Counted from the first letter of the stretch, positions 8,524-42,996 are shown. The stretch: 64,000 nucleotides of DNA from Pyrinomonadaceae bacterium (GCA_044230475.1 JBGARA010000002.1:25975-89974), one strand, 5' to 3'. The notes: generated by a model not told the origin, from the sequence alone. Numbers and translations are program-made.

Positions 8524-8528
8524 AAAAA

Positions 8529-9487
<959 letters not shown>

Positions 9488-9699
9488 TGCGAGAAGCTCG
9501 CACTTTGGTTTTGCCTTTGCTTATAGTATAACTATGCGGTAACAGGTTCGTCTAATAGATCAGTTTTGCGATTTGCGTCCGAAACGAACCGCCCTAAATT
9601 ACGACATTGCATTGGCGATCTGCCTGTAAATAGTTAACGAGATTGAAGTTTCGTGTTAAACTGAAGCTGTATTTTTACCGATATTGACCGGATTTGCGA

Positions 9700-10074
9700 A
9701 TGGCCTCTCTACAGACCCAGTTTGAGGAAAAGCGGTTTGCCCTGCGTATGGCACTCAGGCTCCCGGTTGTCATTTCGGGGCGAACCGAGGACGGCTCGGC
9801 ATGGAGCGAGCCAACAGAAACCGACGATATTTCGACTCTCGGAGCCCTTTTTCAATTAAATCAACCTATTACTGCGGGCGACAGTGTCAAGATACGCGCG
9901 CATCGGCCAAACGGAACGCCCGTCGAGGTCAAGGCGAACGTTGTGCGTGTCGTTCCGGCAAATTTCGGTACTTCACGTGTGGGCGTTTCTATCGAAGAAT
10001 CAAAAGAAAGCTGGCTGCGTCTTTTTGTTGCCTGGATCGCCGATGACAATGTCGTCGAAGGCGTGGACGAGTAG
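9700..10074 (+). CDS. PilZ domain protein (putative c-di-GMP receptor)
   Basis: About 124 aa from ATG 9700 (the track uses TTG 9694). Contains RxxxR (KRFALR) and DxSxxG (DISTLG), the two PilZ c-di-GMP-binding motifs, at the expected spacing. Confidence 0.7.
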   Translation: MASLQTQFEEKRFALRMALRLPVVISGRTEDGSAWSEPTETDDISTLGALFQLNQPITAGDSVKIRAHRPNGTPVEVKANVVRVVPANFGTSRVGVSIEESKESWLRLFVAWIADDNVVEGVDE

Positions 10075-10176
10075 ATTAAATCTTTTTCAACGCAGAGACG
10101 CCAAGATGCAGAGTTTATGAATTGTTTTCTTCGCGTCTTTTGTTTCTATGTGACTTTGTTTTAGAAATTCCTGACT

Positions 10177-10959
10177 ATGTCTAATTGCGAAACTATCACG
10201 GTCGAAAAGCGAGGGCGTGTTGCCGTTCTGACGATAAATCGTCCGGACAAACTCAACTCGCTCAGCAAACAGGTTCATGCAGAGGGTGTCGCGGCGCTTG
10301 ATGAATTAAAAAAGGATGATGGCGTTCGTGTTTTGGTGATTACCGGCGCGGGCGAGAAATCGTTCATCGCCGGTTCGGACATCAAAGAATTTGACGGTGA
10401 AACTCCGGTCACTCAACGCGATCTTTTTCATGAAAGTTCGCTCTATAATTCGATCGACTCGTTTCCAAAGCCGGTGATCGCGATGGTAAATGGATTTTGC
10501 CTCGGTGGCGGCAATGAGGTTGCGATGGCGTGCGACCTGCGAATGGCGAGCGAGACGGCCCGGTTTTCACAACCTGAGATCAACCTCGGCATCATTCCCG
10601 GAGGCGGCGGAACTCAGCGGCTGACAAACCTGGTAGGCGAGGGCCGCTCGATGGAAATGATATTGACCGGCGATATGATCGACGCCGCAACGGCTGAAAA
10701 GATCGGGCTAGTCAATCACGTTTACCCAGCCGAACAACTCGAAGCCGAGACGATGAAGCTTGCCGAAAAGATCGCCGAAAAGGCCCCTATTGCCCTAAAG
10801 CTTTGTAAGGAAGCCGTGAAATTTGCCTCACGCTCAAATCTGGACGAAGGGCTTCGGCGCGAGGTCGATCTATTTGCGATCTGCTTTTCGACCGAAGACA
10901 AAAAGGAAGGCGTAGCAGCATTCTTAGAAAAACGAAAGCCGGAATTTAAAGGCAAATAG
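10177..10959 (+). CDS. enoyl-CoA hydratase/isomerase (crotonase) family protein
   Basis: 260 aa. Crotonase motifs ITGAGEKSFIAGSDIKEF and NGFCLGGGNEVAMACDLR, with the oxyanion-hole glycine pattern. Confidence 0.9.
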   Translation: MSNCETITVEKRGRVAVLTINRPDKLNSLSKQVHAEGVAALDELKKDDGVRVLVITGAGEKSFIAGSDIKEFDGETPVTQRDLFHESSLYNSIDSFPKPVIAMVNGFCLGGGNEVAMACDLRMASETARFSQPEINLGIIPGGGGTQRLTNLVGEGRSMEMILTGDMIDAATAEKIGLVNHVYPAEQLEAETMKLAEKIAEKAPIALKLCKEAVKFASRSNLDEGLRREVDLFAICFSTEDKKEGVAAFLEKRKPEFKGK

Positions 10960-11026
10960 CCGTTCGATTAGATAGAAGAAACTTGACGGGTTCGGTCTTT
11001 TTCGCTAAATTCAAAGTTCCCGATAT

Positions 11027-11102
11027 GGGGACGTAGCTCAGCTGGGAGAGCGCTGCAATGGCATTGCAGAGGTCAGGGGTTCGATCCCCCTCGTCTCCAC
11101 CA
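11027..11102 (+). tRNA. tRNA-Ala (anticodon GGC), CCA encoded
   Basis: Folds by hand into a cloverleaf. Acceptor GGGGACG/CGTCTCC with the G3:U70 alanine identity pair. D arm GCTC-AGCTGGGA-GAGC. Anticodon stem CTGCA/TGCAG with loop ATGGCAT (anticodon GGC). T arm AGGGG-TTCGATC-CCCCT. 3-prime ACCA. Confidence 0.95.
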
Positions 11103-11150
11103 TTATGGTTTTACAAAGACAGGCTCGACGGCCTTTTTTGTTTGTTCGGA

Positions 11151-14015
11151 TCAATTGACCGGCGGGTCGGTTTGCAAGATCTCAATTTTGCCATCGTTAA
11201 GTGTTAGGAACGGATCGCCTTCGTTGAACATCATGCGTTCCCAGATAAGCGGCGAAACCAAGCCTGGTGTCCCAACCGCAGAGAAACGTAAATTCAAAAG
11301 CACTCCATCAGAATCGATAGGCAGCGGACCGTAAACCGCAACTCTTAGCAGCCCCGGCTCGGAAGCGTTCGCGACTACTTTGAGGCCGCGGCTGACGGTT
11401 CCGGCAAGATCGACCGCATTTTCCAAGGGCTGTATGACGAGAGGATCGTATCTCAGATCGAATTCGTAAGAAATCATATCTTTGCCCACTATTTCCTGAA
11501 CAACGACGGGTACGGCGACTTCAGAGCCCGCAGGGACCAAAAGTGAAGGGGTCGAAATGTCGATACTTTTTGCGGGTCCGCTGGTACTGCCGGGTCGGGC
11601 ACCGGTATTATTCCAGTTTCCAGAGACTTCACCCAAAAGCGTTGCCGAATAATCAGCACCTGTGATGTTCAAACTGGTAAGGTTGTATGTTCTGTTTGCC
11701 GGACTAAACGTCCATTGGCCGGTCAAACCATACGGCGGCATATTGGTTGTATAACGGGCAACCTGTGCCGCATCAAAAGAATTAACACTCCCGTTTCCGC
11801 TGACATCTGCTGCAATTTGCTGAGCCTGAGTGAAAGTGGCGTTACTGGTTACAAACTGAGCTATTCGAGCAGCGTCAAATGAATTTATCGCGCCGTTCTG
11901 TCCGCCGATCTTTGATGGAGTTATTGTGTATTGGCCGAGCCCAACGCCTAATGAATACGTTCCTGACGGAAAGGTTGTAAGCGCAAAGGACGGCGGAGCC
12001 CCGTTGGCGTTGATTCTTACGTTGGAGACATAACGAGTGCTAGGTGAGCCAACCGCATTATTGTATGTTACAGTGCCGTCGACAAAAGAAATAGGCGTTG
12101 GGGTCGGCGTAAATGTGGCCGTCGGAGTAAAAGTTGCTGTTGGCGTAAAGGTTGCCGTCGAAGTACTTGTTGGCGACGGGGTGATTGGCGCGGATAAGTC
12201 GGGCAGTACGATAAACACACCAAACTGAGGCAATGTTGTGGGTGGTGTAAATGCTGCTCCTACAGGCGTCGCGACCGATAGAGAATTCCCGGTTAATGGA
12301 AGGCTTATGGTCGGTGATGCCGAGTTGTAAGTATTCTTGGCCACAGTGGGGCCGTTGTAACTAAACGCATTTTTGATCGAGTAGGCCTGTCCGTTTGCTA
12401 ACCCTACCGAGCTGAGGTTTACGCTAATTGACGAGGCTGTGGACGAAGTGTAAACAATAATATTTGCACGTCCGGTGTCGTATGCATTCGGACGAACAAT
12501 GACCGTATCCGGCATCGCATTGCTTGAGGCCATGCTCGCGGCATCGAAGCCGGTTGCTGTTCTCCACGAGCTGAATGTTAGGTTCTGTGAGATCGTACTA
12601 TCACCGAACTCATGCGAGGTGGGTTGAACGGAATAATAACTATTATTGTTGACCTCGTGAGGAAGTTCCTCAGACTGGATATTAACCCCCAGGGTATTTG
12701 TAGTATAAAATCTGTTGCCAGTAGCCGTAGCCCTTGCGACATCTAGTAATTCCAGTCCAATACCGCCGCCGCCTACAAAGTAATTGTCCAAGACCCGCCC
12801 AGTATCTGCACCGGCCCCATAACCGAGTGTCAAGTTGTAGCCGTTCATGGTATGGGGGTGGAAGAAATAGTTGCTCTGTACCAGAATGTCGGTGATCCTC
12901 TGTGTTTCCGTGCCGACGAGCAGATTATGATGCCGCCAAGGAAAGCCTAACGGCGATCCGGAATTTGCAAATACGTTGCCCTGAATATCACCGCCGGGAT
13001 AAGTAGACGTTCTGCCGTAACACTGCACTCCAAGCCCAAAATTGTTAAGAACAATATTGTCCCGTATCCGCGAAAAACCAGAGGCATTTTCTAGATACAT
13101 CCCGTGGCCTTTGCCCTGGTCTGTGCCGTCAAACATGCCGTTGTTGTAGCTAAGGCATCCGTAAGCCTCGGTATCGGAGCTTGAACTGCCGGTAAAGATG
13201 CCGTTCAAATTATCGTGAACGATAAGATTGACGAATTTGTTGCCGTTTCCGGTATTGAAGATACCGGTTCCGCGCAGGCCTTCGGCGCCGTCCGTTAGCC
13301 AGTTTCGCAACGGGTCACTATTTTTTATCTCAATGTCCTGATAAGTCGTGTTATTGCCGATGGTAGAAAGCTGATTACCCGCAAGTCTTACGACTGTTCC
13401 GCTGAGATGTGGGACGGCAAGCGTGCTGCTGCCCGCTGCAGCTCGGTTTACCCTGATGGAGTTGCCCGTAATCCCGTTAATGTAAAGTGCTTCTCCATCA
13501 ATTATTAAGGAAGTCGCTGCACCCTCGCGCCAAGGTGTGACAAATGCAGAGGCATCCTCAACCGTTATCGTCGCTTGCAAATCGTCTATTGCCCCCACAA
13601 GAGTCGTGTAAACATATCCATCGATAACTGGAAAAGCATTAGCGGCCGCGCGAACGGTGCCTCCATTCAACATGGATCTGAATTTGCCTCTATAGGTGCC
13701 ATCCTGCAGACAGAGAGTCTTACCCGCAACTATGGACGTTGTTTTGTTGAGCGCCGTTTGAAGATTCCACGGATTTGTAATGGTGCCGCTGCCGTTAGAA
13801 AAGCCAGTCGGCGATGCATAGTAATCACACGTCGGCGGTGCAAATGGAATCGGCTCGACATTAGTAATATTACTGATTGTAGTATCAGCTTTTACGACAG
13901 AATTATATCTTTGAAGTACTAAGGCGAGCACTATCAGAAGACACACTCCTAGCCATCGGACAGACAGCATCCGAGTGCTTGGCGCGGAGCATAGCGCAGA
14001 AAATCGAATCATCAC
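11151..14015 (-). CDS. secreted right-handed beta-helix protein with Thr/Pro linker, dockerin-like repeats and C-terminal cohesin-like domain
   Basis: 954 aa. Signal-like LGVCLLIVLALVLQ (the alternative start MLSVRW at 13970 is possible). Repetitive N/G/I-rich segments (DIEIKNS, NLIVHDN, NIVLNN, NVFANSG) are typical of parallel beta-helix repeats. Linker PSPTSTSTATFTPTATFTPTATFTPTPTP. DVSGNGSVNSFDAAQVARY plus NGAINSFDAARIAQF resemble dockerin Ca-loop/helix repeats. The C-terminal ~140 aa (VAVPVVVQEI..ISYEFDLRYDPLVIQP) resemble a cohesin. Confidence 0.8.
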   Translation of the reverse strand: MMIRFSALCSAPSTRMLSVRWLGVCLLIVLALVLQRYNSVVKADTTISNITNVEPIPFAPPTCDYYASPTGFSNGSGTITNPWNLQTALNKTTSIVAGKTLCLQDGTYRGKFRSMLNGGTVRAAANAFPVIDGYVYTTLVGAIDDLQATITVEDASAFVTPWREGAATSLIIDGEALYINGITGNSIRVNRAAAGSSTLAVPHLSGTVVRLAGNQLSTIGNNTTYQDIEIKNSDPLRNWLTDGAEGLRGTGIFNTGNGNKFVNLIVHDNLNGIFTGSSSSDTEAYGCLSYNNGMFDGTDQGKGHGMYLENASGFSRIRDNIVLNNFGLGVQCYGRTSTYPGGDIQGNVFANSGSPLGFPWRHHNLLVGTETQRITDILVQSNYFFHPHTMNGYNLTLGYGAGADTGRVLDNYFVGGGGIGLELLDVARATATGNRFYTTNTLGVNIQSEELPHEVNNNSYYSVQPTSHEFGDSTISQNLTFSSWRTATGFDAASMASSNAMPDTVIVRPNAYDTGRANIIVYTSSTASSISVNLSSVGLANGQAYSIKNAFSYNGPTVAKNTYNSASPTISLPLTGNSLSVATPVGAAFTPPTTLPQFGVFIVLPDLSAPITPSPTSTSTATFTPTATFTPTATFTPTPTPISFVDGTVTYNNAVGSPSTRYVSNVRINANGAPPSFALTTFPSGTYSLGVGLGQYTITPSKIGGQNGAINSFDAARIAQFVTSNATFTQAQQIAADVSGNGSVNSFDAAQVARYTTNMPPYGLTGQWTFSPANRTYNLTSLNITGADYSATLLGEVSGNWNNTGARPGSTSGPAKSIDISTPSLLVPAGSEVAVPVVVQEIVGKDMISYEFDLRYDPLVIQPLENAVDLAGTVSRGLKVVANASEPGLLRVAVYGPLPIDSDGVLLNLRFSAVGTPGLVSPLIWERMMFNEGDPFLTLNDGKIEILQTDPPVN
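12105..12158 (-). repeat. 3 x 18-bp imperfect tandem repeat encoding (T-A-T-F-T-P)x3 in the linker of the beta-helix protein
   Basis: Units 12141-12158, 12123-12140 and 12105-12122 (tggcgtaaaggttgccgt / cggagtaaaagttgctgt / cggcgtaaatgtggccgt on the + strand) differ mainly at third codon positions. Confidence 0.8.
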
Positions 14016-14291
14016 CTTTACAGGGTCCTGTTAGGATATCAAAAAATACATCTCTGTCCAATAAAATGAGGGTATATGCCCGGGACGGCGAGCGGGTTCC
14101 CTATGATCGACCGTCTCTCATTTTATTTCTTTAAAGATCCTATCGCCGCCCATTTTATTGCGGCGAGCACCATAAACTATCACATTGATGTTTGATTTGA
14201 AACACCAATGTGTCCGATCTGACTTGATTTTCTTATTTCGACGTTCTTTTCCGAAGACGACGAGTTTCCCATCTCTGACGATGAAAAAAAG

Positions 14292-17200
14292 CTATTTTGC
14301 AGGCGGATCGTCGGAAACCTGGAAGAAATCACCGGCGCCGTCGTTAGTTTTTAGCAGGCGCATGACATCCTCGTAACCGAATGGGTGGGCCCCGCGACGG
14401 CCAAAAACGGCGATCTGGTTGCCGCTTTCGTCGGCTGCACGGTCGCGGTCGAGTCCTTTGGAGATGCCGACGGCTTCGCCCTTGGTCTTGAAAGTGGCGA
14501 TGAGCTTCGGCTCAGGACGCGGGCTGAAACCGGAGAATGTGGGCATAGTTTCGGGATCGGTAAGCTGGAGGATTTTGAGGCCGTTTTTGCCGTCAGCGAC
14601 GTAGCCGTAAAGGCTGGCGTTGGTCATCGCAACCTTGATCGAATGAGCGTCGTTTATCGAACCGTCTGCATTAAATGTTTGATCAAGCTTGGGCTGTTCG
14701 GGCTTTTCCACATCGATTATCGCAATGCCATCTTCGCCATTTGCAACGTAAGCGTAGGTGCGGGCGACGTAAATATCATGAGCGTGTGAGAGCCGCACTT
14801 CTGATCCTTCGACTTTACGGACCTCGCCGGTGGACTGAAGGTTTTTGATATCGAGTACCTCCATTCCGTCAGCATCGACGACGAATGCGTACATGAACTG
14901 CACAGCAACCGCTTTCGGATGGTTTAAGGGAACCTGTGCCGCAACTTTTGGTTGAAGCGGCGTCGAAAGATCGACGATCACAAGAGCTGTGTCAGTCGTA
15001 ATGTAAGCAAAGTTACCGGCGATTGTTATGTTGTTGGCACCATTAAGAGCGCCCTCAGGATTAAAGGTCACGGCACGTTTCAGGAAATTGTTTTGCGGGT
15101 CGCCGTCGAGCAGCGTTGCCGCATTGACCAGGATCAAACCTTCATATTTATCGGCGACAAAAAGATAGGCGTACAAAGGATGTATCGGGCCTTCCTCGTT
15201 GATCGCAGGACGCGGCTTGCCTAGTTTGTCAGCCTCGGCGTTCAGGCGTAATGCTTCGTCGGGGGGCACTTGTTTTAGCGTCCCGTCTTCATTGCGAACG
15301 GTTCGCCATCGTGCGGGATCGACCGCCAAAGTCGAAGGCGCTGCAACCGCAGCGGCGTATTTTGTCGGGACGTAAAACTTTTGGCCGATCGGCGAGACAG
15401 GTGCGGTGGTTATTCGTTCGGAAAATCCTTTGTGATCGATCTGAGCGATGTCATAAACGCGCAGGCCGCCCTTTCCTGCTGCAACGTAGGCATATTCGCC
15501 ACGCGTCTGCACCTGCAAAACTTCGGGACGGCCTTTGTTTTCGTAAACTTCTTCCAATTCGCGTCCATCGGCAACAAACTTATCGTAATTGTCCTTATAA
15601 GCAAGTTTATGAAGGTTGCTGCCATAGACGGCCTGCGGCTCGGTGTGTTCGGTGACGGCGACGGCTTCTAGTGCGTCGGTTGCGGCTATGTACACGTAGC
15701 GGCCCATGAAGTTGACGAAGTTCGTTCCTTGCAGCATGACCTGGGCGAGCCATGCATTGTTGTCTTTGTCTTTTGAAACGTGACAGTTTGAGCACGTCTG
15801 AGTTTCTTTGCCGCGAACGGTGTGCGGCACATGTGTATTGAACGCCTGACCCGAAAAACCTTCAGCAGAAATTGTTTGCTGCTGGCTGTAGATCCATTCG
15901 CGGTTCTGGTTTCTTGAGCTGACAAGAACTGCCGAACGCGAAGCAACTGGTGCAACGCGATGGCCTGTTACCGTCCCGTCGATACCGAGCATGAAAATAT
16001 CGTCACGCAGAACCTGAAAATTGTAAGACGTAAAGTTACGCGAATCGCCCCCCTCGTTATGGCGGTTTGGCATTTTGCGATTAGCTTCCATGGAAAGGTG
16101 ACAGCCGAAACAGCTCGTAACCCACGAGGTATGACACGCGTAGCAGGTCATGTTGCTGTCACGATGCGCGAGTTTGTCGTCACCGACAGCGGAATCACCC
16201 CAAGTCGCATTGTCTTTTTGGATCGTCTTAGCGTAAGCGGACGCAGGATTATAATCGCGGTTTCCTTCAGTTACGGTATCAGTCGTTTGTTTGACCCGCC
16301 ACCACAAGTCGGGATCGACGATCGAGTTTTGAACGATGTCGCCTTTTTTGAGGGCGATATCGCGACCGGCCGAATTCTTTCGTTTTGTATCAGCCTTAAT
16401 AACTTCGAGTATGAATTTCTGTTTTCCGTCAGGCGCCCGGAACTTGAGACGTGTCAGATCGCGTCCTATCAATGGCCTGCCGTCTTTGTTTCTGGCATTG
16501 ATCTCTGCCTTGTTTGTTGTTTGCATGGCAGCAAAGCCGCTCGTGATACCGTTGGCTTTTGCCTTAACCGTACCGTGGCAATCTACACAGCCGACTTCGA
16601 CCGCCGCTCGCGGTTCGTTGTAAAGAATGCCGGTGCCGTGGCTGTCTTGTTGAAAGTGACAGTCGGCACAGTGCATTCCTTTTTCGAGGTGAATGTCTTG
16701 AAGATGAACAGCTTTCTTAAATTTATCAGGATCGTTCGCGTCAACCACGCGTCCGCCAACATCAAGCAGGTTTCCTTTGCGATCTTTCTTGTAAACGTTT
16801 TTGAATACCCATCCGTGGCCGTGCGAATCGGCAAATTGAACATTTCTTAACTTGGCGTTGAAATCCGCCGTGCCTGTCTGCTGCAAGAAAACAGAATCGG
16901 ACCAAAGGCCACGAAGCGAGGACCCTTCAGGGTTTTTGTCGAGCTTTTCTTTTTCTTCTGACTGGCTCGGGTTGATCTGTTTGTCCGACGGATACATCAT
17001 CTTGCCGTCGGTCTCATTGTCCCACCACATCTGGCCGAGATACGTGGCAACCATGTTGGTGCCAGGATGCATGTGACATGTCATGCACTGAGACGTTGGA
17101 ATATTTGACGTGAATTGATGCTTGATCGGATGACCGGGTTCATTCTTAGGAATCTTTGTATCTGCCGACTGCGAAAATCCTTGATTTCCAGCAGTCGCGT

Positions 17201-18251
17201 AAGGCCCGGACGCTTTTTTGCTTGTGTCGTTTGCGTAAATGACGTGACAAGCCGTGCATCCCGCCGAGCGATAATCACCGGCATGGTCGTTAGTGCCGAG
17301 AAAATTAAGAGTCGGATCGAGTAAGCGCGTTTTTTGCAGGCCGAGATAGACCGGATCCGTTCGATTGTTTGTACCGAGGCCGCGCGGACTCAGGCCTTTG
17401 TCCGGCTTGCCGTTATCTTCGTCTCTGTCAGGATTGCCAAGTTCGAGGCGCCGTTTCCCACCGCGCTCAAAGACGCGAAGAATATTACCCGGCTGTGATA
17501 TTTCCCAACGCGGCAGCGGGTAGAGCGATTCAAGAAAGCCTTCCTTTGCCTGCTGTTCGCGAGTTGCTGCAGGCGATTGAAACAGCGCCTGCGGCTTGCC
17601 GTCCTCGCTATAGCTTTCCCCAAAATGAGTGTCCTTGATCGGAAATCCGCTGTTGTTATAAAGTGCCGCTCCCCACAACATAGCGCCGTGTGCCATCATG
17701 CTGCGCGGGCTGCGGCGAACTTCTTCGGTATGACAGCTACCACATGTCTGGCTGATAACACGAAAATCGCCGGGATTGATAAAGCGGACAAAATCGCGGC
17801 TTTCTTTTGCAAGCAGTGAGTTTGTTCGCTCGGGATTTTTGCTCGAACATTCGCCATTTTTACAGCCCCATTCTTTTGGGAAAAGCGGCTGGACATGAGC
17901 TTCTTTCTGGGTTGTTGCCGCAGGGTTACCACCGTGGCACGCGGTGCAGCTTAAGTCCTGGGCATCTTTTCCGTTCTTTAGGGTTTCGTAAACATCACCG
18001 CTGCTGTTGAATTTGTGCATCGGCTCGATGTTGTTGTGGCATTTTAGACAGCCTTCCATGGGAGCTTCATCAACCGTCTTTGGAGGTGCCGGGGCAGCGG
18101 GCAGAATTTGACGATTGGTCCTAGAAACGGGTGGATTGTCATTTATCTTTGCGAGAGCCGAGCCTTTCCATGCGGCAGCAGCCAAAAAACAGGCAAAAAT
18201 AAGCAGGACGGTCAGCTTGATCCGATTATTTGTGCTTCTACCTGCGGACAT
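14292..18251 (-). CDS. decahaem c-type cytochrome fused to a C-terminal LVIVD-repeat beta-propeller
   Basis: 1319 aa. Signal peptide ([22 protein letters not shown]). Ten CxxCH motifs: CLKCH, CTACH, CGSCH, CTACH, CMTCH, CADCH, CVDCH, CYACH, CFGCH, CSNCH. The last ~480 aa carry repeated LVIVD-type strands ([50 protein letters not shown]). Confidence 0.9.
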
Positions 18252-18270
18252 TACCTCACTCCTTAACGTG

Positions 18271-20385
18271 TTAAAAAATCAGTTTCATCTGGCTAAACAG
18301 CGAATACTGCGGCTTTGACGGATTAACAATATCGTCGTTAGAGCAAAAATTCGGTATCGGGCAGTTACGCGGTTTGTCGGTGTAAATATCCTTAAATCCT
18401 TTACCGGCAAAAAAGACGCTGCCGCCGAATGTGAACGTCACGTTGTTTATCAACCACGGGCGATAAACGACTCCGAGGCTTAAGTCGCCGCCGATCTCGT
18501 GACGAACACGCGGTTGAAATAACACATACTCAATGGATTCGGTGCGATGAAAGCGAAGATAGTTTGCATTGAACACCGCCTTGACGGTTTGCGTTATTTC
18601 AGCGTCGGCTCCGAGATTGAATATCTCGATGCCCGGGTTGACGAAATTAGCCTGACCCTCGGTCTTGCTCGACCGCAGACTTGGCAAAAGACTGTTGCCC
18701 TGAACTAATCCCACTTCGGTCGATACGAGACGAATTCCTTGTCGATTCCAGTATGAGAACTGTCCGCCGACAAAATTGGGGTCATCCAGGATCGCATCAA
18801 AGCCGTTCGCTTTGTTATCAGTCGGATCGCTGTCACCCGATGCAAAGAAAAACGATGCGCGATAACGCAGCCAGTCGCGATCTATCGATGCTTCGACGGC
18901 CGCCATGTGGGCCTTGATGTCGGTACGCTTTCCGGCTATCGGACTGAAGTCGTCGCGGCCAAATGCGAAATAATATGAATTAGACAGGTTAAGCAAACCG
19001 ATGTGGCCGTCACCGTTGAAACCAACATAACCTGCCTTGACGTTGTGCTCGCGGGCACTGCCGATCAACGCGGGACGAACGAGAAAGCCGTTCTCGTCAT
19101 AGTGAATACGCCCGCGGTCGTCGTTATATGCCGCGATGCCCTGGATCGTATAGCCTTTTGTTAAAAAGTCCTGATGGTAAAAATTGCCGATGAAAACATT
19201 CTGACGTCGCAAGTGAAATGTGTTCAGGCCGCTGTTCGTGTCTTTTTCAAGCTGATTAAAATAGGCTAGATTGAACTGATTCTTATTATTTGAAAACGCT
19301 CCGAAAAACCTGGCTCCTAAGTTATTGTCCGAATATAAAAATCCGCGAAAGTCAGCATTGAAGGACTGAATTCCAGCACGGACGAATGCCGCGTCGTAGT
19401 TGTCGTTTGTGTCGAATAGCTTCACTTCGGCAAAAGCGTCTTCGAGCGATGCGTGATAGTCGGTCCGTGTCGTTCCTCGGCGAACATCAATATTCACAAT
19501 GCCGTTTTCGCGGGCGTTGAGATAATTAGGAACGCTGAATGTCGGTGAAATTTTAATAGCCCAAGTTCGCGGACGGAAAACGGTGTCGCCCTTAAAAAAC
19601 TCGAATGACAGCTGAAGCGTTTCATTGATCGAAAGACTTTCCGGGCGGCCAAAAAAATTATTGCTGTTCGGGTCCGCTGTGCTGACATTGTTTCCCGAAG
19701 GCGTTCGTCGAATTTCGATGCCCGTCGTGCTGGTGCCGGACAAGATCATGAAATATTTGTCGCCGATGATCGGGAAATCGCCTTTTAGAACGTTCCTGTC
19801 GTAAGGGTTGTACCATGCATTTCGTCTGAAGGGGATATCACGTCCACGAGCTCCCTTGTCGCCGTAGCGATCGTATTCCGGAAACTCATAACGCCAGCGG
19901 TCGCGTACCTCGCGACGGTCGGGGATGTTTTTTGAGGCAGCCTCTGTTTTGCCGTCATCCTCAGGCTTTACTGCACTTGTATTTGCCGCCTTAAAGTCTA
20001 TCTTTCGCTCGCCGCCGTCGATGATTACGTTTTCGAGGATGGGGCATTTTTCTTTTTTCCTGTCACAGAAGACGTTGGAAAACACGCCGTATTCTACGGT
20101 CTTGCCCGGGTCAAAACGCGCTTCGAAAGGCGGAGCGACCGTTATGCGGTAAGCACCGGCTCGAAGCCGGAATGAATACTGACCGTCAGATCTAGTTACG
20201 CGCCGTTCATCATCTCCCGAGGTTTGATCCGTGACGATCACTGTGACGCCAGCGACAGGATTGCCATTTTCGTCAACGACTTTTCCGGTAAGCCGTCCGC
20301 CGGACGACTGGGCATAGTTAGTCGAAACTATTGATAAACCAAATAGGGCGAGAAAAAGAACAGTTTTCGGAAAACTCAACGACAT
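18271..20385 (-). CDS. outer-membrane beta-barrel protein with N-terminal carboxypeptidase-regulatory-like domain
   Basis: 704 aa. Signal peptide, then [24 protein letters not shown] (CarboxypepD_reg-like). Long alternating-hydrophobicity, Tyr/Gly/Asn-rich sequence. C-terminal ...SQMKLIF ends in Phe as in OM barrels. Stop lies 19 nt before the decahaem gene. Confidence 0.8.
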
Positions 20386-20536
20386 AGCGCAAATTATTCC
20401 AACAACGTGCAGGAGACAATAAATTAAAATATCTTCTAGGGTAAGTTACTGATAGTGTTTGTAACACAGTTTACGCCAAAAACCAAACACTAAATAACTT
20501 GACTATCGCGGACGTTTGTATAATAGTCAGAAAATC

Positions 20537-22198
20537 ATGAAGAGTAGACAACTGGTGAAGAAGTTTAAGTTTTTTGCCGGATTGGCGATCTTGGCCGTCT
20601 CGGCTCTCAACATTCAGGCTCAAAACAGTTTAACGGCAGCAGACGTGCAGAGGATAATCGCTCAGGCGGTTTCCGAGGCGGTCGTATTGAACAAAAAGGT
20701 TACGGTTTCCGTGCTCGATAAGGAAGGACATGTGCTGGGAACTTTTGCTATGACCGGAGCGGCAGCGACAACCACGATCCGCGGCACGGGTCGATTAGGG
20801 CAAGGATTTGAAGGCGTCACTGTCCCATCGCGTTTTGCCTCTCTGTCTAAGGCCGGTACGGGCGCTTTGCTTTCGTCGGGCGGGAATGCATTTTCAACAC
20901 GGACCGCTTCGTTCATTATTCAGGAACATTTCCCTGCAGGTATCGACAATACGCCGGGCGGGCCGCTTTTCGGTGTACAGTTTTCGTCGCTGAAGTGTTC
21001 TGATGTTGCGATCTCAGGACTTCCCCTTGGCTTGTCCGGCGATGCGGGAGGAATACCACTTTACAAAGACGGTGTGGAAGTTGGGGGTGTAGGTGTCGAG
21101 GGCGATGGCCTTTATACAGTCGATACTAATCCGCGTGACAACGACCAGTCTTATGAAGAAAGAATAGCCGTTGCGGCGTCGCGAGGATTTGACACGCCAG
21201 CCTTAATTCGTGCCGATAATATACTTGTTGCAGGCATTCGTTTTCCATTTGCGAACATAAATGCCGCAGATTTTCCGGTTGCGACAGCTATCCCATTCGG
21301 AAGTTTACCCGGCGTGATAGATACCGATCCGGTTATGGCTGCGCCGGCGAGCGATTTTGTACCACGCATTTTGAATGGGGTAAGCGGGCAAGCCAGTATT
21401 CGCTATCCGACTATTGCGGGTTCTGCGCTGACCGCAACGGAGGTCGATCAGATACTAGGCGCGGCCGCCGCTACAGCTAATATTACGCGAGCCGCGATTC
21501 GTCAACCACTAGGTAGTAATGCAAGGGTTAATATTACCGTGGTTGATACTGACGGTAAGATTCTAGGGTTTTTCAGATTGCTCGATGCGCCGGTCTTTGG
21601 CTTTGATGTTTCGGCTCAAAAGGCTCGAACAGTCAATTTTGTCTCCAGTTCGATGGCTGGTACTAAATTAACTGTAGCGGGTTTCGGATCATACGTTACA
21701 CGAGCAAACGCGGACAATATCGGGCTAAACGGTTCGATTGCTTTCAGTGACAGAGGTTTTGGTTTTCTGAACCGCCCGATGTTTCCAGATGGAATAAATG
21801 GAACAGATGCCGGGCCGTTTAGTCGTCCTCTGGCCGATTTTAGTCCTTTTAATAATGGGCTGCAGGTCGATCTTATAAGAGATGCGGTTCTTACCATGCC
21901 CATATGTCGTGGGTCGGGAAGGGAGAAGAGGACTATGCTTCCTCCGTGTCCTTGCACAGTACTTCCTGAACTGAAGAATGGCACTCAGTTGTTTGCCGGT
22001 GGAGTTCCGCTCTACAGAGGAAATACACTTATCGGCGGCATCGGCACAAGCGGCGACGGCATTGAACAAGATGATCTGATTTCGGCCGCGGGAGCAAACC
22101 TGTTTCCGCCGCCGCAGGCAATGCGATCAGACAATTTCTTTGTTCGCAATGTTCGGCTTCCATTTGTAAAGTTTCCACCAAGACCGTTTTTGCCTTAA
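20537..22198 (+). CDS. secreted protein with two GlcG/HbpS-like (DUF336, haem-binding/degrading family) domains
   Basis: ATG 20537 gives MKSRQLVKKFKFFAGLAILAVSALNIQAQ, a signal peptide (the track starts at TTG 20516). There are two copies of the pattern LT..(D/E)V..I......A.....V...V(L/V)D..G..LG plus AGG(I/V)PLY..G..(V/I)GG(V/I)G(V/T)(E/S)GDG, characteristic of GlcG/HbpS-like proteins. Confidence 0.75.
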   Translation: MKSRQLVKKFKFFAGLAILAVSALNIQAQNSLTAADVQRIIAQAVSEAVVLNKKVTVSVLDKEGHVLGTFAMTGAAATTTIRGTGRLGQGFEGVTVPSRFASLSKAGTGALLSSGGNAFSTRTASFIIQEHFPAGIDNTPGGPLFGVQFSSLKCSDVAISGLPLGLSGDAGGIPLYKDGVEVGGVGVEGDGLYTVDTNPRDNDQSYEERIAVAASRGFDTPALIRADNILVAGIRFPFANINAADFPVATAIPFGSLPGVIDTDPVMAAPASDFVPRILNGVSGQASIRYPTIAGSALTATEVDQILGAAAATANITRAAIRQPLGSNARVNITVVDTDGKILGFFRLLDAPVFGFDVSAQKARTVNFVSSSMAGTKLTVAGFGSYVTRANADNIGLNGSIAFSDRGFGFLNRPMFPDGINGTDAGPFSRPLADFSPFNNGLQVDLIRDAVLTMPICRGSGREKRTMLPPCPCTVLPELKNGTQLFAGGVPLYRGNTLIGGIGTSGDGIEQDDLISAAGANLFPPPQAMRSDNFFVRNVRLPFVKFPPRPFLP

Positions 22199-22202
22199 AC
22201 CG

Positions 22203-22991
22203 ATGCAACGTCTTTGTTGGCATTTACTTTTCGTTCTGATCCTCTTGTTCGGTTGCGAAGAAATCTTTGCACAGGCAAGTGGCTCATTGATCGTGAATGG
22301 CCGCGCAAAAGTCGGAACAAAAACCGTGGTTCTTAAGAAAAAAAGATTCTATCTTTTTCGGGGTGACCGCGAAGCAAACAAAACATTGGTAGAACGGCTC
22401 AGAAGCGCGAAAGTGACGTCGCGCGACTGTTTTTATTGCCAGCAAAAGGTAAGCCCGGAATTTATGGCTTGGCTGAAGGCAAGTGACGGCGGCTGTGAGT
22501 CAGTTTATTGCCGCGAGATCACGCAGGAAGATATTGAACGCGTACCGGAATTTAAGACGGGTTTTGAAAAGGGAGTAAAACCCTTTGCAAAGAAGCCAGA
22601 GCTTGCGCGCAAATGGCTCGTAACAAATCTCGAGCCCGGACTTCGCACAGGATTCTACGATGCCCGAAAGGCAATGATCGACGATCTGCTGAAAGATTTA
22701 CCCGCGGAGCGGCTGCCGGTCCAATCCTCGATGACCGACAACAGCGCGGCATCATTAGCTAACTTTTCGAGTATACCTTTGACCCCTGAAGTCGAGAAAT
22801 TTATCTTTGCCAATCTGGTACCGATCGAGATCGGAGAAAGAAGCTATGTTTGGGTATGCGAAGTCGATGTCGGAAAGGATAAAAAAACGCCTATCCTGGA
22901 TGCACCGGAAACCAGCAAGGTAATCAAGAAATGTGAGGTGATAGTGCGAGACCTGCCCGTTTGTAATGCGGGAATGTGTGAACAGAAATGA
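22203..22991 (+). CDS. hypothetical secreted or lipoprotein, Cys-rich
   Basis: 262 aa. N-terminus LLFVLILLFGCEEIFAQA (possible lipobox LFGC or SPI site AQA). 10 Cys. 4 nt from the upstream stop, and its stop overlaps the next start (ATGA). Confidence 0.6.
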   Translation: MQRLCWHLLFVLILLFGCEEIFAQASGSLIVNGRAKVGTKTVVLKKKRFYLFRGDREANKTLVERLRSAKVTSRDCFYCQQKVSPEFMAWLKASDGGCESVYCREITQEDIERVPEFKTGFEKGVKPFAKKPELARKWLVTNLEPGLRTGFYDARKAMIDDLLKDLPAERLPVQSSMTDNSAASLANFSSIPLTPEVEKFIFANLVPIEIGERSYVWVCEVDVGKDKKTPILDAPETSKVIKKCEVIVRDLPVCNAGMCEQK

Positions 22992-24085
22992 AACTTTTTC
23001 TCAGACTCATTTTTGTCGGACTGGCTGTCGTGATATTTGCGGGCAGCTTAATAACACATTCCCTTGCGCAAAAAGCTACGGGTCAGAATGCCGGAAAAAC
23101 GTTTTCCCATTTCACAAAATCTCACCAATTCGCTGACTGCAAGATTTGTCACACTCTGCCGACGCGAAATTGGACATCGCCGAGAGCTGACAAAGCCGAC
23201 TCTTTTCCAGATGTGACGGATTATCCTTTCAATCTTCCCGATACAAAAGGTGCGGCAAAACATACAGCCTGTTTCGGATGTCATACAAACGATATATACA
23301 GCAAGGGTGGTGCTTTTTGTGCAGGCTGTCATTTGGCCGCCGGACCGCGTGCGAGGCCCGGAAGCGGGCTTCGACCATTTCCAAATCCTGCTCATCCCAC
23401 GCAGTTCACGACTATCTTTCCGCACGACGCCCACCAGGACATCGTGGCCTTGAACGATCGAAGAAATGATACTGCTCCGGGACATTTTGTTTTGGCAAGT
23501 TTTACCGAACCGCCCGACAACAAAAATACCGAATTCTATAATTGCTCTACGTGTCATCAGACTTCAAAAATCTTGCCAAAATATGGAACACGTAAACCGA
23601 ATACCGATCAAAAACCATTGGCGGCCGCCCCGGACCCGTTCAAACCGACCGCTGACTACTTTAAGGATGTTCCGATGAATCATGCGACGTGTTTTGCATG
23701 TCACTATCAGCGTACACAACCGATCTCAACAAATTGTTCAGGCTGCCATAAACTTGCTGACAAGCCTTATTTTGAATCCAGTGTCGTAGAAAGATATTCA
23801 TTGAAATTCAGCCACGAACAATTGGGTAAGAAATCGCAGGTTGGCGAGCGTGTTCACGCAAAAGACTGCATGACCTGTCACCTCCGTACGGCGGGCAGCT
23901 CCGATCTGCAGGCATACAAGAAAAAAAGTGAACCTGAAGTGCCGTTCTCAACATGCGTTTCGTGTCACAGCGACGATATAAAAGACCAACTGGAAAAGCG
24001 GGAAAAGGACAAGAAGTTTCAGTGCAATTATTGTCATGTATCGACTATCGGAAGATATGAGAAACCCGAAAGTCATCACGAATGA
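22988..24085 (+). CDS. nonahaem c-type cytochrome (cytochrome c3/c7-like family)
   Basis: 365 aa. Signal peptide. Nine CxxCH motifs: CKICH, CFGCH, CAGCH, CSTCH, CFACH, CSGCH, CMTCH, CVSCH, CNYCH. Confidence 0.9.
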   Translation: MKLFLRLIFVGLAVVIFAGSLITHSLAQKATGQNAGKTFSHFTKSHQFADCKICHTLPTRNWTSPRADKADSFPDVTDYPFNLPDTKGAAKHTACFGCHTNDIYSKGGAFCAGCHLAAGPRARPGSGLRPFPNPAHPTQFTTIFPHDAHQDIVALNDRRNDTAPGHFVLASFTEPPDNKNTEFYNCSTCHQTSKILPKYGTRKPNTDQKPLAAAPDPFKPTADYFKDVPMNHATCFACHYQRTQPISTNCSGCHKLADKPYFESSVVERYSLKFSHEQLGKKSQVGERVHAKDCMTCHLRTAGSSDLQAYKKKSEPEVPFSTCVSCHSDDIKDQLEKREKDKKFQCNYCHVSTIGRYEKPESHHE

Positions 24086-24990
24086 TAATGAACGCGAGTT
24101 CAAGACAAATGTTGAAGGCTGTGCTCGTCGTCGTCTGTGCTGCGCTTTTTGCGGCGTCTTGCATTCAGCAAGCGGCAAAGACGCCCGTGACACTGACCTC
24201 GGCGGAAACGCCTGATCCTATACCGCAGCGTGTTTCTGACAAGACATTCAAATCTTTTTCTCACAGCATTCCTGAGCACATACAATTTGCCTGCAATACT
24301 TGCCATCAACGCGAGACACGTGGCGTCAAAAGTGAATTTGGCGGGCACGAATCCTGCATCGGCTGTCACCTGAATCAGTTCATCGATGAGGAGCAGATGA
24401 TGTGCGCTATCTGCCACACCGATACAAAAGGGCAAGATCCGCCGGTCAAGGCTTTCCCCGCGAAATTTATCGAAGGGTTCAACATGAAATTTGATCATGC
24501 GGCTCACATTTCTATTTCCAATTGTGACGATTGCCATAAATCTTCTGGAAGAGGAAAATCGATACCCGTCGGATTTGAGGCGCATGCGAATTGTTACGGA
24601 TGCCACACCGTAGAGAACAAACCGGCAAGCGGCCAGTGCAATGTTTGCCATCAGTTGGCACCATATAATAGAACGACGCAGTCAGAATATAATTTCAAAG
24701 CAATTTTTAGCCACGCCGATCACACAGGTAAAGGAATTACCTGCAATGATTGTCACAACGTGGTTGCCGGGGTGCCGAATTCACGACAAGTAACAAACAT
24801 TCAGATCCTGGAACACCGCACCAGTCCTGGCAACAATTGCCTGCAGTGTCATAACGGCAGACGCGCTTTTACGGGCAATAATCCACTCGACGCACGCAGC
24901 TGCGCGCGTTGCCACGGCGGCTCGGTATCGCCCGTTCTGCCGCCAGGCACTTATGCCGATACCGCTGAAGAGGCTCCGGCAGAGAATTAG
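24082..24990 (+). CDS. nonahaem c-type cytochrome, probable lipoprotein
   Basis: 302 aa. N-terminus VVVCAALFAASCIQQ (lipobox-like AASC). Nine CxxCH motifs: CNTCH, CIGCH, CAICH, CDDCH, CYGCH, CNVCH, CNDCH, CLQCH, CARCH. ATGA overlap with the upstream gene. Confidence 0.9.
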   Translation: MIMNASSRQMLKAVLVVVCAALFAASCIQQAAKTPVTLTSAETPDPIPQRVSDKTFKSFSHSIPEHIQFACNTCHQRETRGVKSEFGGHESCIGCHLNQFIDEEQMMCAICHTDTKGQDPPVKAFPAKFIEGFNMKFDHAAHISISNCDDCHKSSGRGKSIPVGFEAHANCYGCHTVENKPASGQCNVCHQLAPYNRTTQSEYNFKAIFSHADHTGKGITCNDCHNVVAGVPNSRQVTNIQILEHRTSPGNNCLQCHNGRRAFTGNNPLDARSCARCHGGSVSPVLPPGTYADTAEEAPAEN

Positions 24991-25001
24991 AACAATCCAA
25001 T

Positions 25002-25568
25002 ATGATTCGATTGAACAAACTTACGGGATTCGTGTTTTGTCTTACCGTCTGTATCGTTTTTTCTTATGATATTTCCAGATTTGGCTGGACGGGCTATTCG
25101 CACGCGTCTGTTAGACAAGGATCACCTCCAACTGCAACCCCAACAGCAACTGTGACAGCGACTGAACAATCGACCGTAAAGCCGACGCCATTCAATACTC
25201 CTGTAACTGCTAATATAAAGCAGGGTCTTGACCAGCCGATGCAATCAATCAATAAGGAACTACGTGCACTCGATGAAGATGGAGAAAAGGGACCCGTCCC
25301 TTTCGATCATGACTCGCATGCCTTTAAGGCAAGTTATAGCATCGATGGGAACTCAATCGTGGCCTGTGTGGCATGTCATCATACGGACCAACCACGAACG
25401 CCCGGGCGATTATCCGAACGCCTTGTGACCCTCACATATACAGTCTGGAAAGGCTTGGAGAACTGCACTTTATGCCATGCTAGTGCAGCGGAAAGAAGAA
25501 CAGAACTAAGGAAAAAAGCGAAATTTGCCACTAGAATCAACCAACAATGCAGTGTTTGTCATGGGTAG
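25002..25568 (+). CDS. trihaem c-type cytochrome with Thr/Pro linker
   Basis: 188 aa. Signal anchor, linker PPTATPTATVTATEQSTVKPTP, then PFDHDSHAF...CVACHHTDQP, CTLCH, CSVCH. Confidence 0.85.
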   Translation: MIRLNKLTGFVFCLTVCIVFSYDISRFGWTGYSHASVRQGSPPTATPTATVTATEQSTVKPTPFNTPVTANIKQGLDQPMQSINKELRALDEDGEKGPVPFDHDSHAFKASYSIDGNSIVACVACHHTDQPRTPGRLSERLVTLTYTVWKGLENCTLCHASAAERRTELRKKAKFATRINQQCSVCHG

Positions 25569-25588
25569 AGCTATGAGTTTTTCCAAAA

Positions 25589-26407
25589 ATGTTGACTTCA
25601 GATTCAAAAGGGTTTTTAATAAGTCGTATTATGAAAAACACAGCTAAATTGATAGTGATCTCTACTTTTGCGCTCGGGGCGCTATTTGCTTTTTTGAGCA
25701 TCAATGGTCAGGTTACGATAGGCGCGGCTGGTTTTTCCGGAGTAGCAGCACAGCCGACTCCGCCAAAAAAGACAAACTCAAATTCGGTATCGGCCAACGC
25801 CAAACCGGCGGCAAATGTAAGCACGTCCGCAAACACAATGCCGGCTAATGCTTCACCAGTAAGCACAGTATCGCCCGCGGCGACATCCGCTGCGACGCCT
25901 CTAACTTCGGCGGCAAATACAGGTACCGCAACCGGTCCGACCGGCAGCGGCAAAAAGATAACTAAATCATTCACCTTGGGTGCAGACAGCCAGTCTGAAT
26001 ACGGCGAGGCTCCGTTCGATCATGATTCACATGCCTTTATGAAATACAGCCCCGATGGCAAATCAGTTATGGGCTGTGTCGAGTGCCATCATACCGATCA
26101 ACCAAAATCGGCGATGCAGCCACCATATGTGACTTCAGAACGGGATGAGGTTCTGACTTTTGAACTATGGCAAAAATCGAATCAAAAGGTTAGTAGCTGT
26201 CGCGATTGCCATTTTCAGGATGGAAATGTTCCCGACGGAAAAACTATGCCGAAATCAGGCACTAAAGATCTGAATAATCAACTTGCGTATCACATCAACT
26301 GTAACTCGTGCCATGACGCAGCCTTTAGGGCCCGGCCAGAGCTAAAATCTCACAAAGGATTTGCAACGTCGAAGGACTGCGCCGTTTGTCACAAAGTGAA
26401 TCAATAA
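25589..26407 (+). CDS. tetrahaem c-type cytochrome (c3-like) with long Ala/Ser/Thr/Pro linker
   Basis: 272 aa (the alternative ATG 25631, MKNTAKLIV..., gives a cleaner signal peptide). PFDHDSHAF...CVECHHTDQP, CRDCH, CNSCH, CAVCH. Paralogous to the preceding gene. Confidence 0.85.
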   Translation: MLTSDSKGFLISRIMKNTAKLIVISTFALGALFAFLSINGQVTIGAAGFSGVAAQPTPPKKTNSNSVSANAKPAANVSTSANTMPANASPVSTVSPAATSAATPLTSAANTGTATGPTGSGKKITKSFTLGADSQSEYGEAPFDHDSHAFMKYSPDGKSVMGCVECHHTDQPKSAMQPPYVTSERDEVLTFELWQKSNQKVSSCRDCHFQDGNVPDGKTMPKSGTKDLNNQLAYHINCNSCHDAAFRARPELKSHKGFATSKDCAVCHKVNQ

Positions 26408-26857: not shown

Positions 26858-26893
26858 GCGCATCGCAACTTTTTTCGGTAACACATACTCACA

Positions 26894-39397: not shown

Positions 39398-39425
39398 CAC
39401 GAGGCACGACCCTCGCGTTTTTTAT

Positions 39426-41867: not shown

Positions 41868-41905
41868 TCCTGATCAAGAACGGGAATTGTACGGTCCTCC
41901 ACAAA

Positions 41906-42991: not shown

Positions 42992-42996
42992 TATTG

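Follow-up and report, generated by a model that had tools for sequence, protein, structure and literature searches.

Outer-membrane barrels act together with multihaem c-type cytochromes in several described porin-cytochrome modules (Mtr/Pio/Mto, Omb/Oma/Omc, and Ext), of which the Mtr module has a barrel, MtrB, with 26 strands around the cytochrome MtrA (PDB 6R2Q). Geobacter has a genetically validated conduit, ExtABCD, whose barrel ExtB has 18 predicted transmembrane strands (PMC6148476), and for its porin-like ExtI, roles as a channel for a substrate and/or as an anchor for a cytochrome have been discussed (PMC5877670). In Desulfovibrio ferrophilus (DFE_0448-0451 / 0461-0465), genes for NHL-repeat propeller proteins neighbour those for outer-membrane cytochromes (PMC5815863), and such propellers, also those of the Tenderiales uet cluster, have been proposed to contribute to protein-protein interaction or complex stabilisation (PMC5815863; bioRxiv 10.1101/2022.05.06.490989). 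Large acidobacterial multihaem cytochromes without assigned function have been noted for metagenome-assembled genomes (MAGs) from wastewater (PMC8100337). Here we describe a gene pair in a 64,000-nucleotide (nt) stretch of DNA from a Pyrinomonadaceae bacterium (GCA_044230475.1 JBGARA010000002.1:25975-89974), hereafter the window, which encodes an outer-membrane barrel protein and a decahaem cytochrome fused to a beta-propeller. The pair is tightly linked, kept across Acidobacteriota, and uncharacterised, and we give about an even chance to the idea that it is an Acidobacteriota-specific outer-membrane redox module forming a functionally new family of the porin-cytochrome type.

The gene pair and its distribution

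The barrel-protein gene (704 residues; 18271-20385) and the cytochrome gene (1319 residues; 14292-18251) both lie on the minus strand, as do all of their parts given below. The former encodes a signal peptide, a CarboxypepD_reg domain, a conserved linker, and a predicted 18-strand barrel, and the latter a decahaem c-type cytochrome that carries a fused LVIVD propeller and is exported by Sec. The two open reading frames (ORFs) confirm the arrangement reported in an earlier description of this DNA (the sequence-only reading), in which a 704-residue barrel ends 19 nt before a 1319-residue protein. A ribosome-binding site, AAGGAG (18259-18264), can be read in the 19-nt spacer (18252-18270), 8-13 nt ahead of the ATG. 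A 13-bp hairpin (14181-14212, minus strand), weakly supported by a consensus scan only, lies 80 nt past the cytochrome stop codon and is a possible terminus of a two-gene transcript. The downstream gene begins 276 nt on from the cytochrome gene.

Homologous loci were collected by scanning one genome per GTDB species, which gave at least 597 matching stretches, and the best 80 were examined. These 80 are nearly all from Acidobacteriota (Pyrinomonadaceae, Blastocatellia, Terriglobia, Bryobacterales, Acidoferrales, and Vicinamibacterales). In 73 loci, a barrel homologue directly precedes the cytochrome gene on the same strand, and the contigs of the remaining seven extend no more than ~1 kb upstream of that gene. 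The median gap between the two genes is 25 nt, and their stop and start codons overlap in 10 loci, a count that excludes two negative gaps representing ORF-calling artefacts. Collectively, the two proteins appear to be functionally coupled, with genes that are probably often coupled in translation, and the pair is ancient and strictly linked in Acidobacteriota.

In about 15 loci, gaps of 430-940 nt between the two genes contain small ORFs. A third operon gene at this place was considered and rejected, as these ORFs are unrelated and resemble selfish insertions. By eye, the spacer ORFs (L012:5298-5941, L014-L017, L030:3839-4627, L031, L033, and L075:4980-5791) look like GxxExxY/PD-(D/E)XK-like, PIN-domain, and REP/IS200-type transposase proteins, and the spacer is a recurrent insertion site.

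An exhaustive HMMER search using the haem region alone as query found 2273 clusters (50% identity, E≤1e-3). Their full-length representatives have 1200-1450 residues and 9-10 CxxCH motifs, indicating that the propeller fusion is the norm of the family. There are thousands of full-length homologues, which carry the name 'hypothetical protein' in the MAGs of Pyrinomonadaceae and of further Acidobacteriota; one 90%-identical cluster member is labelled as a 'Chloracidobacterium sp.' MAG. The homologues of the barrel protein also number in the thousands. The sequence-only reading had called the fusion of a cytochrome to a propeller unusual. This stands insofar as no characterised precedent was found in the libraries searched, and no description of the barrel/cytochrome family or of an LVIVD-multihaem fusion in the literature searched, but within Acidobacteriota the fusion is the standard layout of a very large family.

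The outer-membrane barrel protein

The barrel protein starts with a signal peptide, followed by an Ig-like domain at residues 29-135 (19981-20301) that AlphaFold2 and Pfam identify and that contains a CarboxypepD_reg match at residues 32-84 (Pfam, E 7e-13). This agrees with the sequence-only reading, which had pointed to such a domain as a difference from MtrB/PioB. The domain is predicted to be periplasmic and is exchangeable; with a sequence identity of 0.29 among 63 barrel-protein homologues, the set used for all conservation values of this protein, it is the least conserved region. The usual partners of CarboxypepD_reg are TonB-dependent receptors and SusC-like proteins. Membership in that group was rejected, since there is no Plug or TonB_dep_Rec match and 18 strands rather than 22 are predicted; the SusC match is limited to CarboxypepD_reg itself (residues 32-83, 21 bits compared with a cut-off of 368).

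A charged and aromatic linker with invariant residues (residues 155-210, 27-letter sequence not shown; 19756-19923) directly precedes strand 1. It is conserved at 0.55 identity, and its motif is kept in homologues whose N-terminal domain is a tetrahaem cytochrome and in those having no such domain. In the AlphaFold2 monomer model, the stretch 139-203 is of low confidence and the pre-barrel linker has a predicted local distance difference test (pLDDT) score of ~30. The linker is a candidate for a periplasmic plug or for a segment binding a partner.

The remaining residues 211-704 (18274-19755), ending in MKLIF, are assigned to a beta-barrel by AlphaFold2 and Foldseek. The model, built on an alignment of 43 homologues, is of moderate confidence (mean pLDDT 60, strands ~70-80) and places 18 beta-strands in residues 211-703. 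These are joined by short turns of 2-9 residues and long loops in alternation, a pattern that fits an outer-membrane barrel with both its N- and C-termini in the periplasm. Homologues with an intact C-terminus end in an aromatic residue (F/Y), which is the usual signal for outer-membrane insertion. Loop L7, an acidic and aromatic-rich segment of 70 residues (516-585; 18631-18840) modelled at low confidence, is the most conserved segment of the protein, with an identity of 0.73 compared to 0.52-0.59 in the strand regions. Outer-membrane loops are usually the most variable parts of such proteins; that L7 and the linker are as conserved as the strands, or more so, therefore points to an interface or a constriction. 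L7 is a candidate for either a constriction or a partner interface, and these two non-membrane parts are likely the functional surfaces of the barrel protein.

In Foldseek searches of the PDB with the barrel model, the top 16 matches are all AlgE (E 1e-16 to 3e-14, template-modelling (TM) score 0.61-0.69, normalised to the target), followed by chitoporin, ScrY, and OccK/OprD; overall, the matches range from E 1e-16 to 1e-9 with target-normalised TM scores of 0.6-0.7. The AlgE-type 18-strand fold is thus found by structural comparison. At the sequence level, the barrel region shows no Pfam match at E≤1, either for the window segment or for seven diverse homologues, and no PDB match in single-sequence and profile searches, and NCBIfam and Pfam recognise nothing in the 704 residues beyond the signal peptide and CarboxypepD_reg. 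Membership in AlgE/Alginate_exp (PF13372) was rejected owing to the absence of Pfam and PDB sequence matches. The barrel protein is thus a genuine outer-membrane barrel, with about 18 predicted strands, belonging to an undescribed family.

The fold raises the possibility of a barrel without any redox partnership, which exports or imports a polymer in the manner of AlgE and to which the cytochrome is linked incidentally or for regulation. AlgE is the best fold match, and an exopolysaccharide cluster lies 18 kb from the barrel in the window. In other genomes that cluster shows no linkage to the barrel, and no polysaccharide genes are conserved beside the pair in the 80 loci, whereas synteny with the cytochrome is universal across classes. 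Together with the lack of a sequence match to Alginate_exp and the existence of a clade in which the barrel is fused to cytochrome c3, this makes polymer transport very unlikely.

The model also bears on the resemblance to MtrB. The sequence-only reading had compared the protein in size with MtrB-type sheaths, which turned out to be misleading: the barrel takes up only ~494 of the 704 residues, and the extra N-terminal domain and linker make the similarity in length a coincidence. The comparison with MtrB_PioB (PF11854) that this reading had proposed gave no match for the full protein, searched at E≤0.01, nor even at E≤1 for the barrel segment and the seven homologues. An MtrB/PioB sheath was therefore rejected, in view of 18 strands instead of 26-28, a fold matching 18-strand barrels, and the lack of a PF11854 match; the same features, with the AlgE/OprD-like fold, indicate that the barrel could not sheath a decahaem protein as MtrB does.

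The decahaem cytochrome and its propeller

The cytochrome has an ordinary Sec signal peptide, and Sec-type signals are also found in its homologues. It contains exactly ten CxxCH motifs, at residues 68, 102, 170, 332, 389, 528, 555, 703, 714, and 820, which take up 20 of its 23 cysteines; approximately 0.01 motifs would be expected by chance from the composition of the protein (23 Cys, 38 His). Each of the ten haem sites is conserved at 95% or more in the 76 homologues on which the conservation values of the cytochrome are based. Some homologues have only nine plain motifs. The Cys and His columns of site 3 are 99-100% conserved in the alignment, and one nine-motif homologue (L044, ~6192-6400) has Cx4CH (CGNSGCH) at this site. 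Haem site 3 thus probably still exists in a variant form, and plain motif counts probably under-report the tenth haem.

The haem region spans residues 61-840 (15732-18071) and includes long, highly conserved haem-free inserts between the motifs. It is followed by a C-terminal beta-propeller of LVIVD repeats (residues ~851-1255; 14487-15701) with ~7-8 blades by the strand pattern. The Pfam LVIVD family (PF08309) matches at E 1.2e-20, with 73 bits compared with a cut-off of 20.2. The AlphaFold2 model of the cytochrome, which covers residues 61-1260 and was calculated from a shallow alignment and without cofactors, folds residues ~910-1255 as a beta-propeller at a pLDDT of 80-94, and Foldseek finds only generic propellers of 7/8 blades for it (WD40, Tako8, BamB, and PorZ). 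The protein is a genuine c-type cytochrome with ten haems to which an LVIVD propeller is fused, and the ten motifs and C-terminal propeller of the sequence-only reading are borne out by motif count, Pfam, and AlphaFold2. The two parts are equally conserved (0.61 identity for residues 61-840 and 0.62 for residues 911-1255), and the mean column identity of the cytochrome within the family is 75%. The propeller contains no conserved His or Cys, so that a Cu or haem centre there is unlikely.

Pfam gives only generic c3/c7-type matches for the haem region, the top NCBIfam match of the cytochrome is ExtM at 68 bits against a cut-off of 800, and PDB sequence and profile searches yield only local matches to haem motifs (the N-terminal domain of TvNiR, and NrfB). 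These generic or sub-cut-off matches place the haem region outside every described family. Two groups of cytochromes were rejected individually: MtrA/DmsE/PioA (TIGR03508), which is absent from the NCBIfam matches and is compact, with about 300-350 residues compared to the ~780 of the haem region, and OmcA/MtrC, the outer-surface lipoproteins with two pentahaem and two beta-barrel domains, for which PF22113 covers only 55 residues (33 bits) and a conserved lipobox is lacking.

With both proteins described, a classical MtrAB/PioAB-type complex, with the decahaem protein enclosed by the barrel as by a sheath, can be considered. The similar total length of 704 residues, the ten haems, and the adjacent genes speak for it. 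These are outweighed by the 18 strands instead of 26, the absence of an MtrB_PioB match at E≤1, and the absence of matches above cut-off to the DmsE/MtrA or OmcA/MtrC families; moreover, with the large globular inserts of its ~780-residue haem region and its 400-residue propeller, the cytochrome is far bulkier than MtrA. This explanation is largely refuted, and we assign it almost no credence. What persists of the porin-cytochrome pairing put forward in the sequence-only reading is the general idea, which is backed by synteny and by the c3 fusion described below, and not the MtrB-type sheath.

Besides the haem motifs, 14 further histidines of the haem region are conserved at 90% or more, including those in HGHGW (residues 477-481; 16809-16823) and GHPIKH (residues 374-378; 17118-17132). 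Bis-His ligation would thus be possible for all ten haems, with four histidines, 92-100% conserved, left over. These surplus residues and the low haem density, 10 haems over ~780 residues, leave room for a true catalytic site. One alternative is a soluble periplasmic oxidoreductase acting on a specific small substrate, its catalytic site being in the conserved haem-free inserts or the propeller; the barrel would be a dedicated channel for uptake of that substrate or export of the product, and would form no stable complex with the enzyme. Such an enzyme would be in line with the strong conservation of the cytochrome and with the extra conserved His, both of which are enzyme-typical. The channel would fit the fold shared with the substrate-specific AlgE, chitoporin, ScrY, and OccK/OprD, the acidic and highly conserved L7, which resembles an inward-folded constriction loop, and the precedent of ExtI. 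However, no match to the multihaem enzyme families NrfA, HAO, OTR, and MccA was found beyond generic haem motifs; the overlapping, translationally coupled genes suggest a stoichiometric complex, and neither the strong conservation of the periplasmic linker nor the periplasmic tetrahaem domain carried by the barrel in a large clade would be explained. We consider this combination of enzyme and channel rather unlikely.

A sister clade with a tetrahaem domain

In two of the loci, from Blastocatellia (L075; 2650-4980) and Terriglobia (L079; 3776-5914), the CarboxypepD_reg domain of the barrel protein is replaced by a tetrahaem class III cytochrome c3 domain with four CxxCH motifs (PF02085, 34 bits compared with a cut-off of 22.9), ahead of the same linker motif and barrel. 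Two other barrel homologues (L038 and L074) have no recognisable N-terminal domain. A search with the L075 protein showed that most of the best 120 cluster representatives (P0395-P0514) have 750-810 residues and PF02085; the NCBI name for these fusions is 'cytochrome c3 family protein'. A cytochrome can thus form the periplasmic end of the barrel protein.

In the four contexts of the fusion that were examined, the LVIVD cytochrome gene follows the tetrahaem-barrel gene. Two of them, L081 and L082, start with a divergent HbpS-like gene, near which a truncated-globin gene is located, and continue with the tetrahaem-barrel gene (L081:10001-12337; L082:10001-12316) and the LVIVD cytochrome gene, which encodes 1328 residues in L082 and is split into fragments in L081. 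Then come a small c3, two multihaem cytochromes of ~300-330 residues, and a cNMP-binding/4Fe-4S protein. In L081, an 882-residue gene product fuses FHA, a weak multihaem signature that is faint in Pfam, 4Fe-4S, and flavoprotein parts; the contig of L082 ends earlier.

Neighbouring genes in the window

A divergent gene on the plus strand (20516-22198) begins 130 nt from the barrel gene and encodes a secreted protein of 560 residues with three HbpS/GlcG-like, haem-binding-type domains (Pfam PF03928, E 7e-18, three stretches). When all neighbours of the 80 loci were clustered, this was the only further widely conserved partner. It is present in 42-43 of the loci, in several classes and usually divergent from the barrel gene, as well as in L081 and L082. 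Candidate roles are those of a haem carrier, a redox sensor, or a chaperone.

The divergent operon continues, after a secreted protein of 262 residues, with electron-transfer genes recognised by profile scans (22203-32681, plus strand). They encode four secreted cytochromes with 9, 9, 3, and 4 haems, one of the 9-haem proteins having a Geobacter-type c7 triheme 'nanowire' domain above cut-off. They also encode an 824-residue cNMP-binding/4Fe-4S protein with four C-terminal His-bearing transmembrane helices, a 474-residue protein with FHA, transmembrane, and 7-haem parts, and a 631-residue flavoprotein that joins a transmembrane segment, 4Fe-4S, and a pyridine-nucleotide oxidoreductase. This operon could provide a quinone-independent route from a cytoplasmic reductant to the periplasm. 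The kinds of genes are broadly common to the window and to L081 and L082, although they are on the opposite strand in the window and collinear downstream in the two others; a similar set of genes in another arrangement makes a good case for a functional unit. The pair and its accessory genes thus appear to sit in multihaem electron-transfer islands, of which the island part is not universal. In several Terriglobia and Bryobacterales loci (L048, L058, L059, L067, and L069; about 9550-11430, minus strand), a convergent gene for a ten-haem cytochrome of 420-490 residues is located immediately downstream of the LVIVD cytochrome gene.

On the other side of the pair, positions 11151-14015 (minus strand) encode a secreted protein of 954 residues with a beta-helix region, a Pro/Thr-rich linker of TPTATF repeats, and both cohesin and dockerin domains in one chain. 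The sequence-only reading had suggested that the propeller might dock to this protein, which is contradicted by the absence of a homologue from all 80 loci. Beyond this gene, a pyridine-nucleotide disulfide oxidoreductase gene (8218-9487, minus strand) is apparently split into an ORF of 237 residues, spanning profile positions 2-209 of 291, and an adjacent one of 148 residues, which could reflect a frameshift or a pseudogene. The probable exopolysaccharide cluster begins with five ORFs on the plus strand (38444-44151) matching a Wza-like exporter, a Wzc-like tyrosine kinase, NeuB, and UDP-GlcNAc 2-epimerase, and same-strand ORFs to ~63000 may continue this capsule or exopolysaccharide cluster.

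Proposed function and mechanism

In the outer-membrane redox module that we propose, the barrel protein would span the outer membrane with 18 strands in an AlgE/OprD-like fold, with its exchangeable N-terminal domain facing the periplasm. The cytochrome, a soluble protein with ten haems and a C-terminal propeller, would be exported by the Sec route and would dock on the linker before strand 1 and/or on loop L7. The Fe-S/flavin and 7-haem proteins anchored in the membrane could pass electrons to periplasmic cytochromes of the c7/c3 type and these in turn to the outer membrane, where the cytochrome-propeller would be the terminal station. Because the barrel is too small to enclose the decahaem domain as MtrB encloses MtrA, it would be expected to act as an anchor and a selective gate, so that a soluble or colloidal redox substrate, possibly chelated Fe or Mn, humic quinones, or an oxyanion, meets the cytochrome-propeller through the barrel or at its mouth. 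The propeller would supply the binding surface. The cytoplasmic flavin/Fe-S partners suggest an outward electron flow and thereby a reductase function of the module.

As for the topology of the module, a complex at the periplasmic face is slightly favoured over a surface-exposed cytochrome. The periplasmic location of the fused tetrahaem domain, the absence of a cofactor motif in the barrel and of a lipobox or sorting signal in the cytochrome, and the narrowness of 18 strands tip the balance slightly in this direction. In the periplasmic-face version, L7 would be folded inward as in OprD-type channels, and the barrel would admit a soluble substrate; the channel and anchor roles discussed for ExtI are a precedent for this version.

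The alternative topology is a trans-outer-membrane conduit, near-universal in several Acidobacteriota classes, in which the 18-strand barrel, holding either a cofactor-free plug or a fused tetrahaem domain, would link cytochromes of the periplasm to a decahaem-propeller on the cell surface. Bound to L7/L9, the latter would bind minerals, humics, or plant polymers and carry out mineral or polymer redox reactions as Mtr or Cyc2 do, and electrons would be carried through the barrel by the linker/plug, by an inserted N-terminal triheme part of the cytochrome, or by the tetrahaem domain of the sister clade. LVIVD and choice-of-anchor-B propellers are typical of cell-surface proteins according to Pfam and NCBIfam descriptions, and the cytochrome has a weak NCBIfam match to TIGR04312; L7, the most conserved part of the barrel, is extracellular by topology, the cytochrome-barrel fusions recall Cyc2, and ExtB is a precedent with 18 strands. 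Against these stand the window barrel itself, which has no CxxCH motif and no other cofactor-binding motif, the poor fit of a folded multihaem domain to an 18-strand lumen, the missing lipobox and surface-sorting signal, and the position of the fused tetrahaem domain at the periplasmic N-terminus. On this evidence, a surface conduit is possible but doubtful.

Several observations weigh against the proposed redox module as a whole. The cytochrome N-termini of the 80 loci share no conserved lipobox and no recognisable surface-sorting signal, and the AlphaFold2 model gives no usable fold for the haem region (pLDDT<50). The four surplus histidines may belong to a catalytic or non-haem metal site, and hence to an enzyme rather than a conduit. 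Physical contact between barrel and cytochrome is suggested by synteny only. No other multihaem gene is present within 6 kb in 54 of the 80 loci, and no member from a cultured organism is among them. In addition, descriptions of the carriers are mostly of aerobic heterotrophs, a lifestyle outside the classical setting of metal respiration.

Significance

Acidobacteriota are among the most abundant bacteria of soil and activated sludge. The present family is very common in them, with at least 597 stretches in species-representative genomes and thousands of protein clusters, and the annotations of its members do not go beyond 'hypothetical', 'multiheme c-type cytochrome', 'carboxypeptidase regulatory-like domain', or 'cytochrome c3 family'. 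For both the barrel and the haem region, the searches found no Pfam or NCBIfam family, no solved homologue, and no mention in the literature covered. If the pair is an outer-membrane redox terminal, electron exchange of the porin-cytochrome type would be extended to a major soil phylum and would use a new structural solution, namely a small barrel with an exchangeable periplasmic domain and a propeller-fused cytochrome. If, moreover, the surface conduit were true, nominally aerobic soil heterotrophs would be widely capable of extracellular electron transfer, for example in Fe(III)/Mn(IV)/humic reduction or in Fenton-type attack on polymers. The two genes, together with a natural haem-fused variant of the barrel, offer a compact target for structural and genetic work.

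Comparison with known systems

Among the 18-strand channels AlgE, OprD/Occ, ScrY, and chitoporin, which share the predicted fold, a long inward-folding loop is a plausible common feature, but the barrel protein differs from all of them in its extra N-terminal domain and conserved linker and in having no sequence-level similarity.

As in MtrCAB, PioAB, and MtoAB, a barrel gene lies next to the gene of a decahaem c-type cytochrome with ten CxxCH motifs. In contrast to these systems, the haem region is ~2.5 times as long as MtrA, with large inserts, and a propeller is fused to the cytochrome. The propellers of D. ferrophilus and of the uet cluster are separate proteins of the NHL type, whereas that of the window is of the LVIVD type, covalently fused, and paired with a predicted true beta-barrel.

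The Ext clusters of Geobacter sulfurreducens (ExtABCD, ExtHIJKL) likewise combine a barrel gene with multihaem cytochromes and have c7-type periplasmic cytochromes encoded nearby, and the 18 strands predicted for ExtB make a barrel of this size compatible with a conduit role. Unlike Ext, the pair shows no detectable sequence relationship to that group and consists of a lone non-lipoprotein operon cytochrome with a fused propeller and a barrel with a swappable N-terminal domain. Similarity to ExtM/ExtN was rejected, as the matches reach 23-68 bits compared with cut-offs of 200-800 and involve paired-haem motifs only. Nor does the pair belong to the Geobacter OmbB-OmaB-OmcB or Ext systems, its conserved unit having a single cytochrome that is not a lipoprotein.

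For Cyc2, the fused cytochrome-porin known from iron oxidisers, no model match was obtained in the Pfam and NCBIfam scans, and the window barrel, with no CxxCH motif, is not a fusion of this type. The sister clade (L075, L079, and P0395-P0514) has, as Cyc2 does, a c-type cytochrome domain N-terminal to the barrel; it differs from Cyc2 in four c3-type haems instead of one, in 18 instead of about 16 strands, and in its separate decahaem-propeller partner. The function of the pair appears to be closest to that of the porin-cytochrome modules Mtr/Pio/Mto, Omb/Oma/Omc, and Ext, and that of the sister clade to the Cyc2-type fusions.

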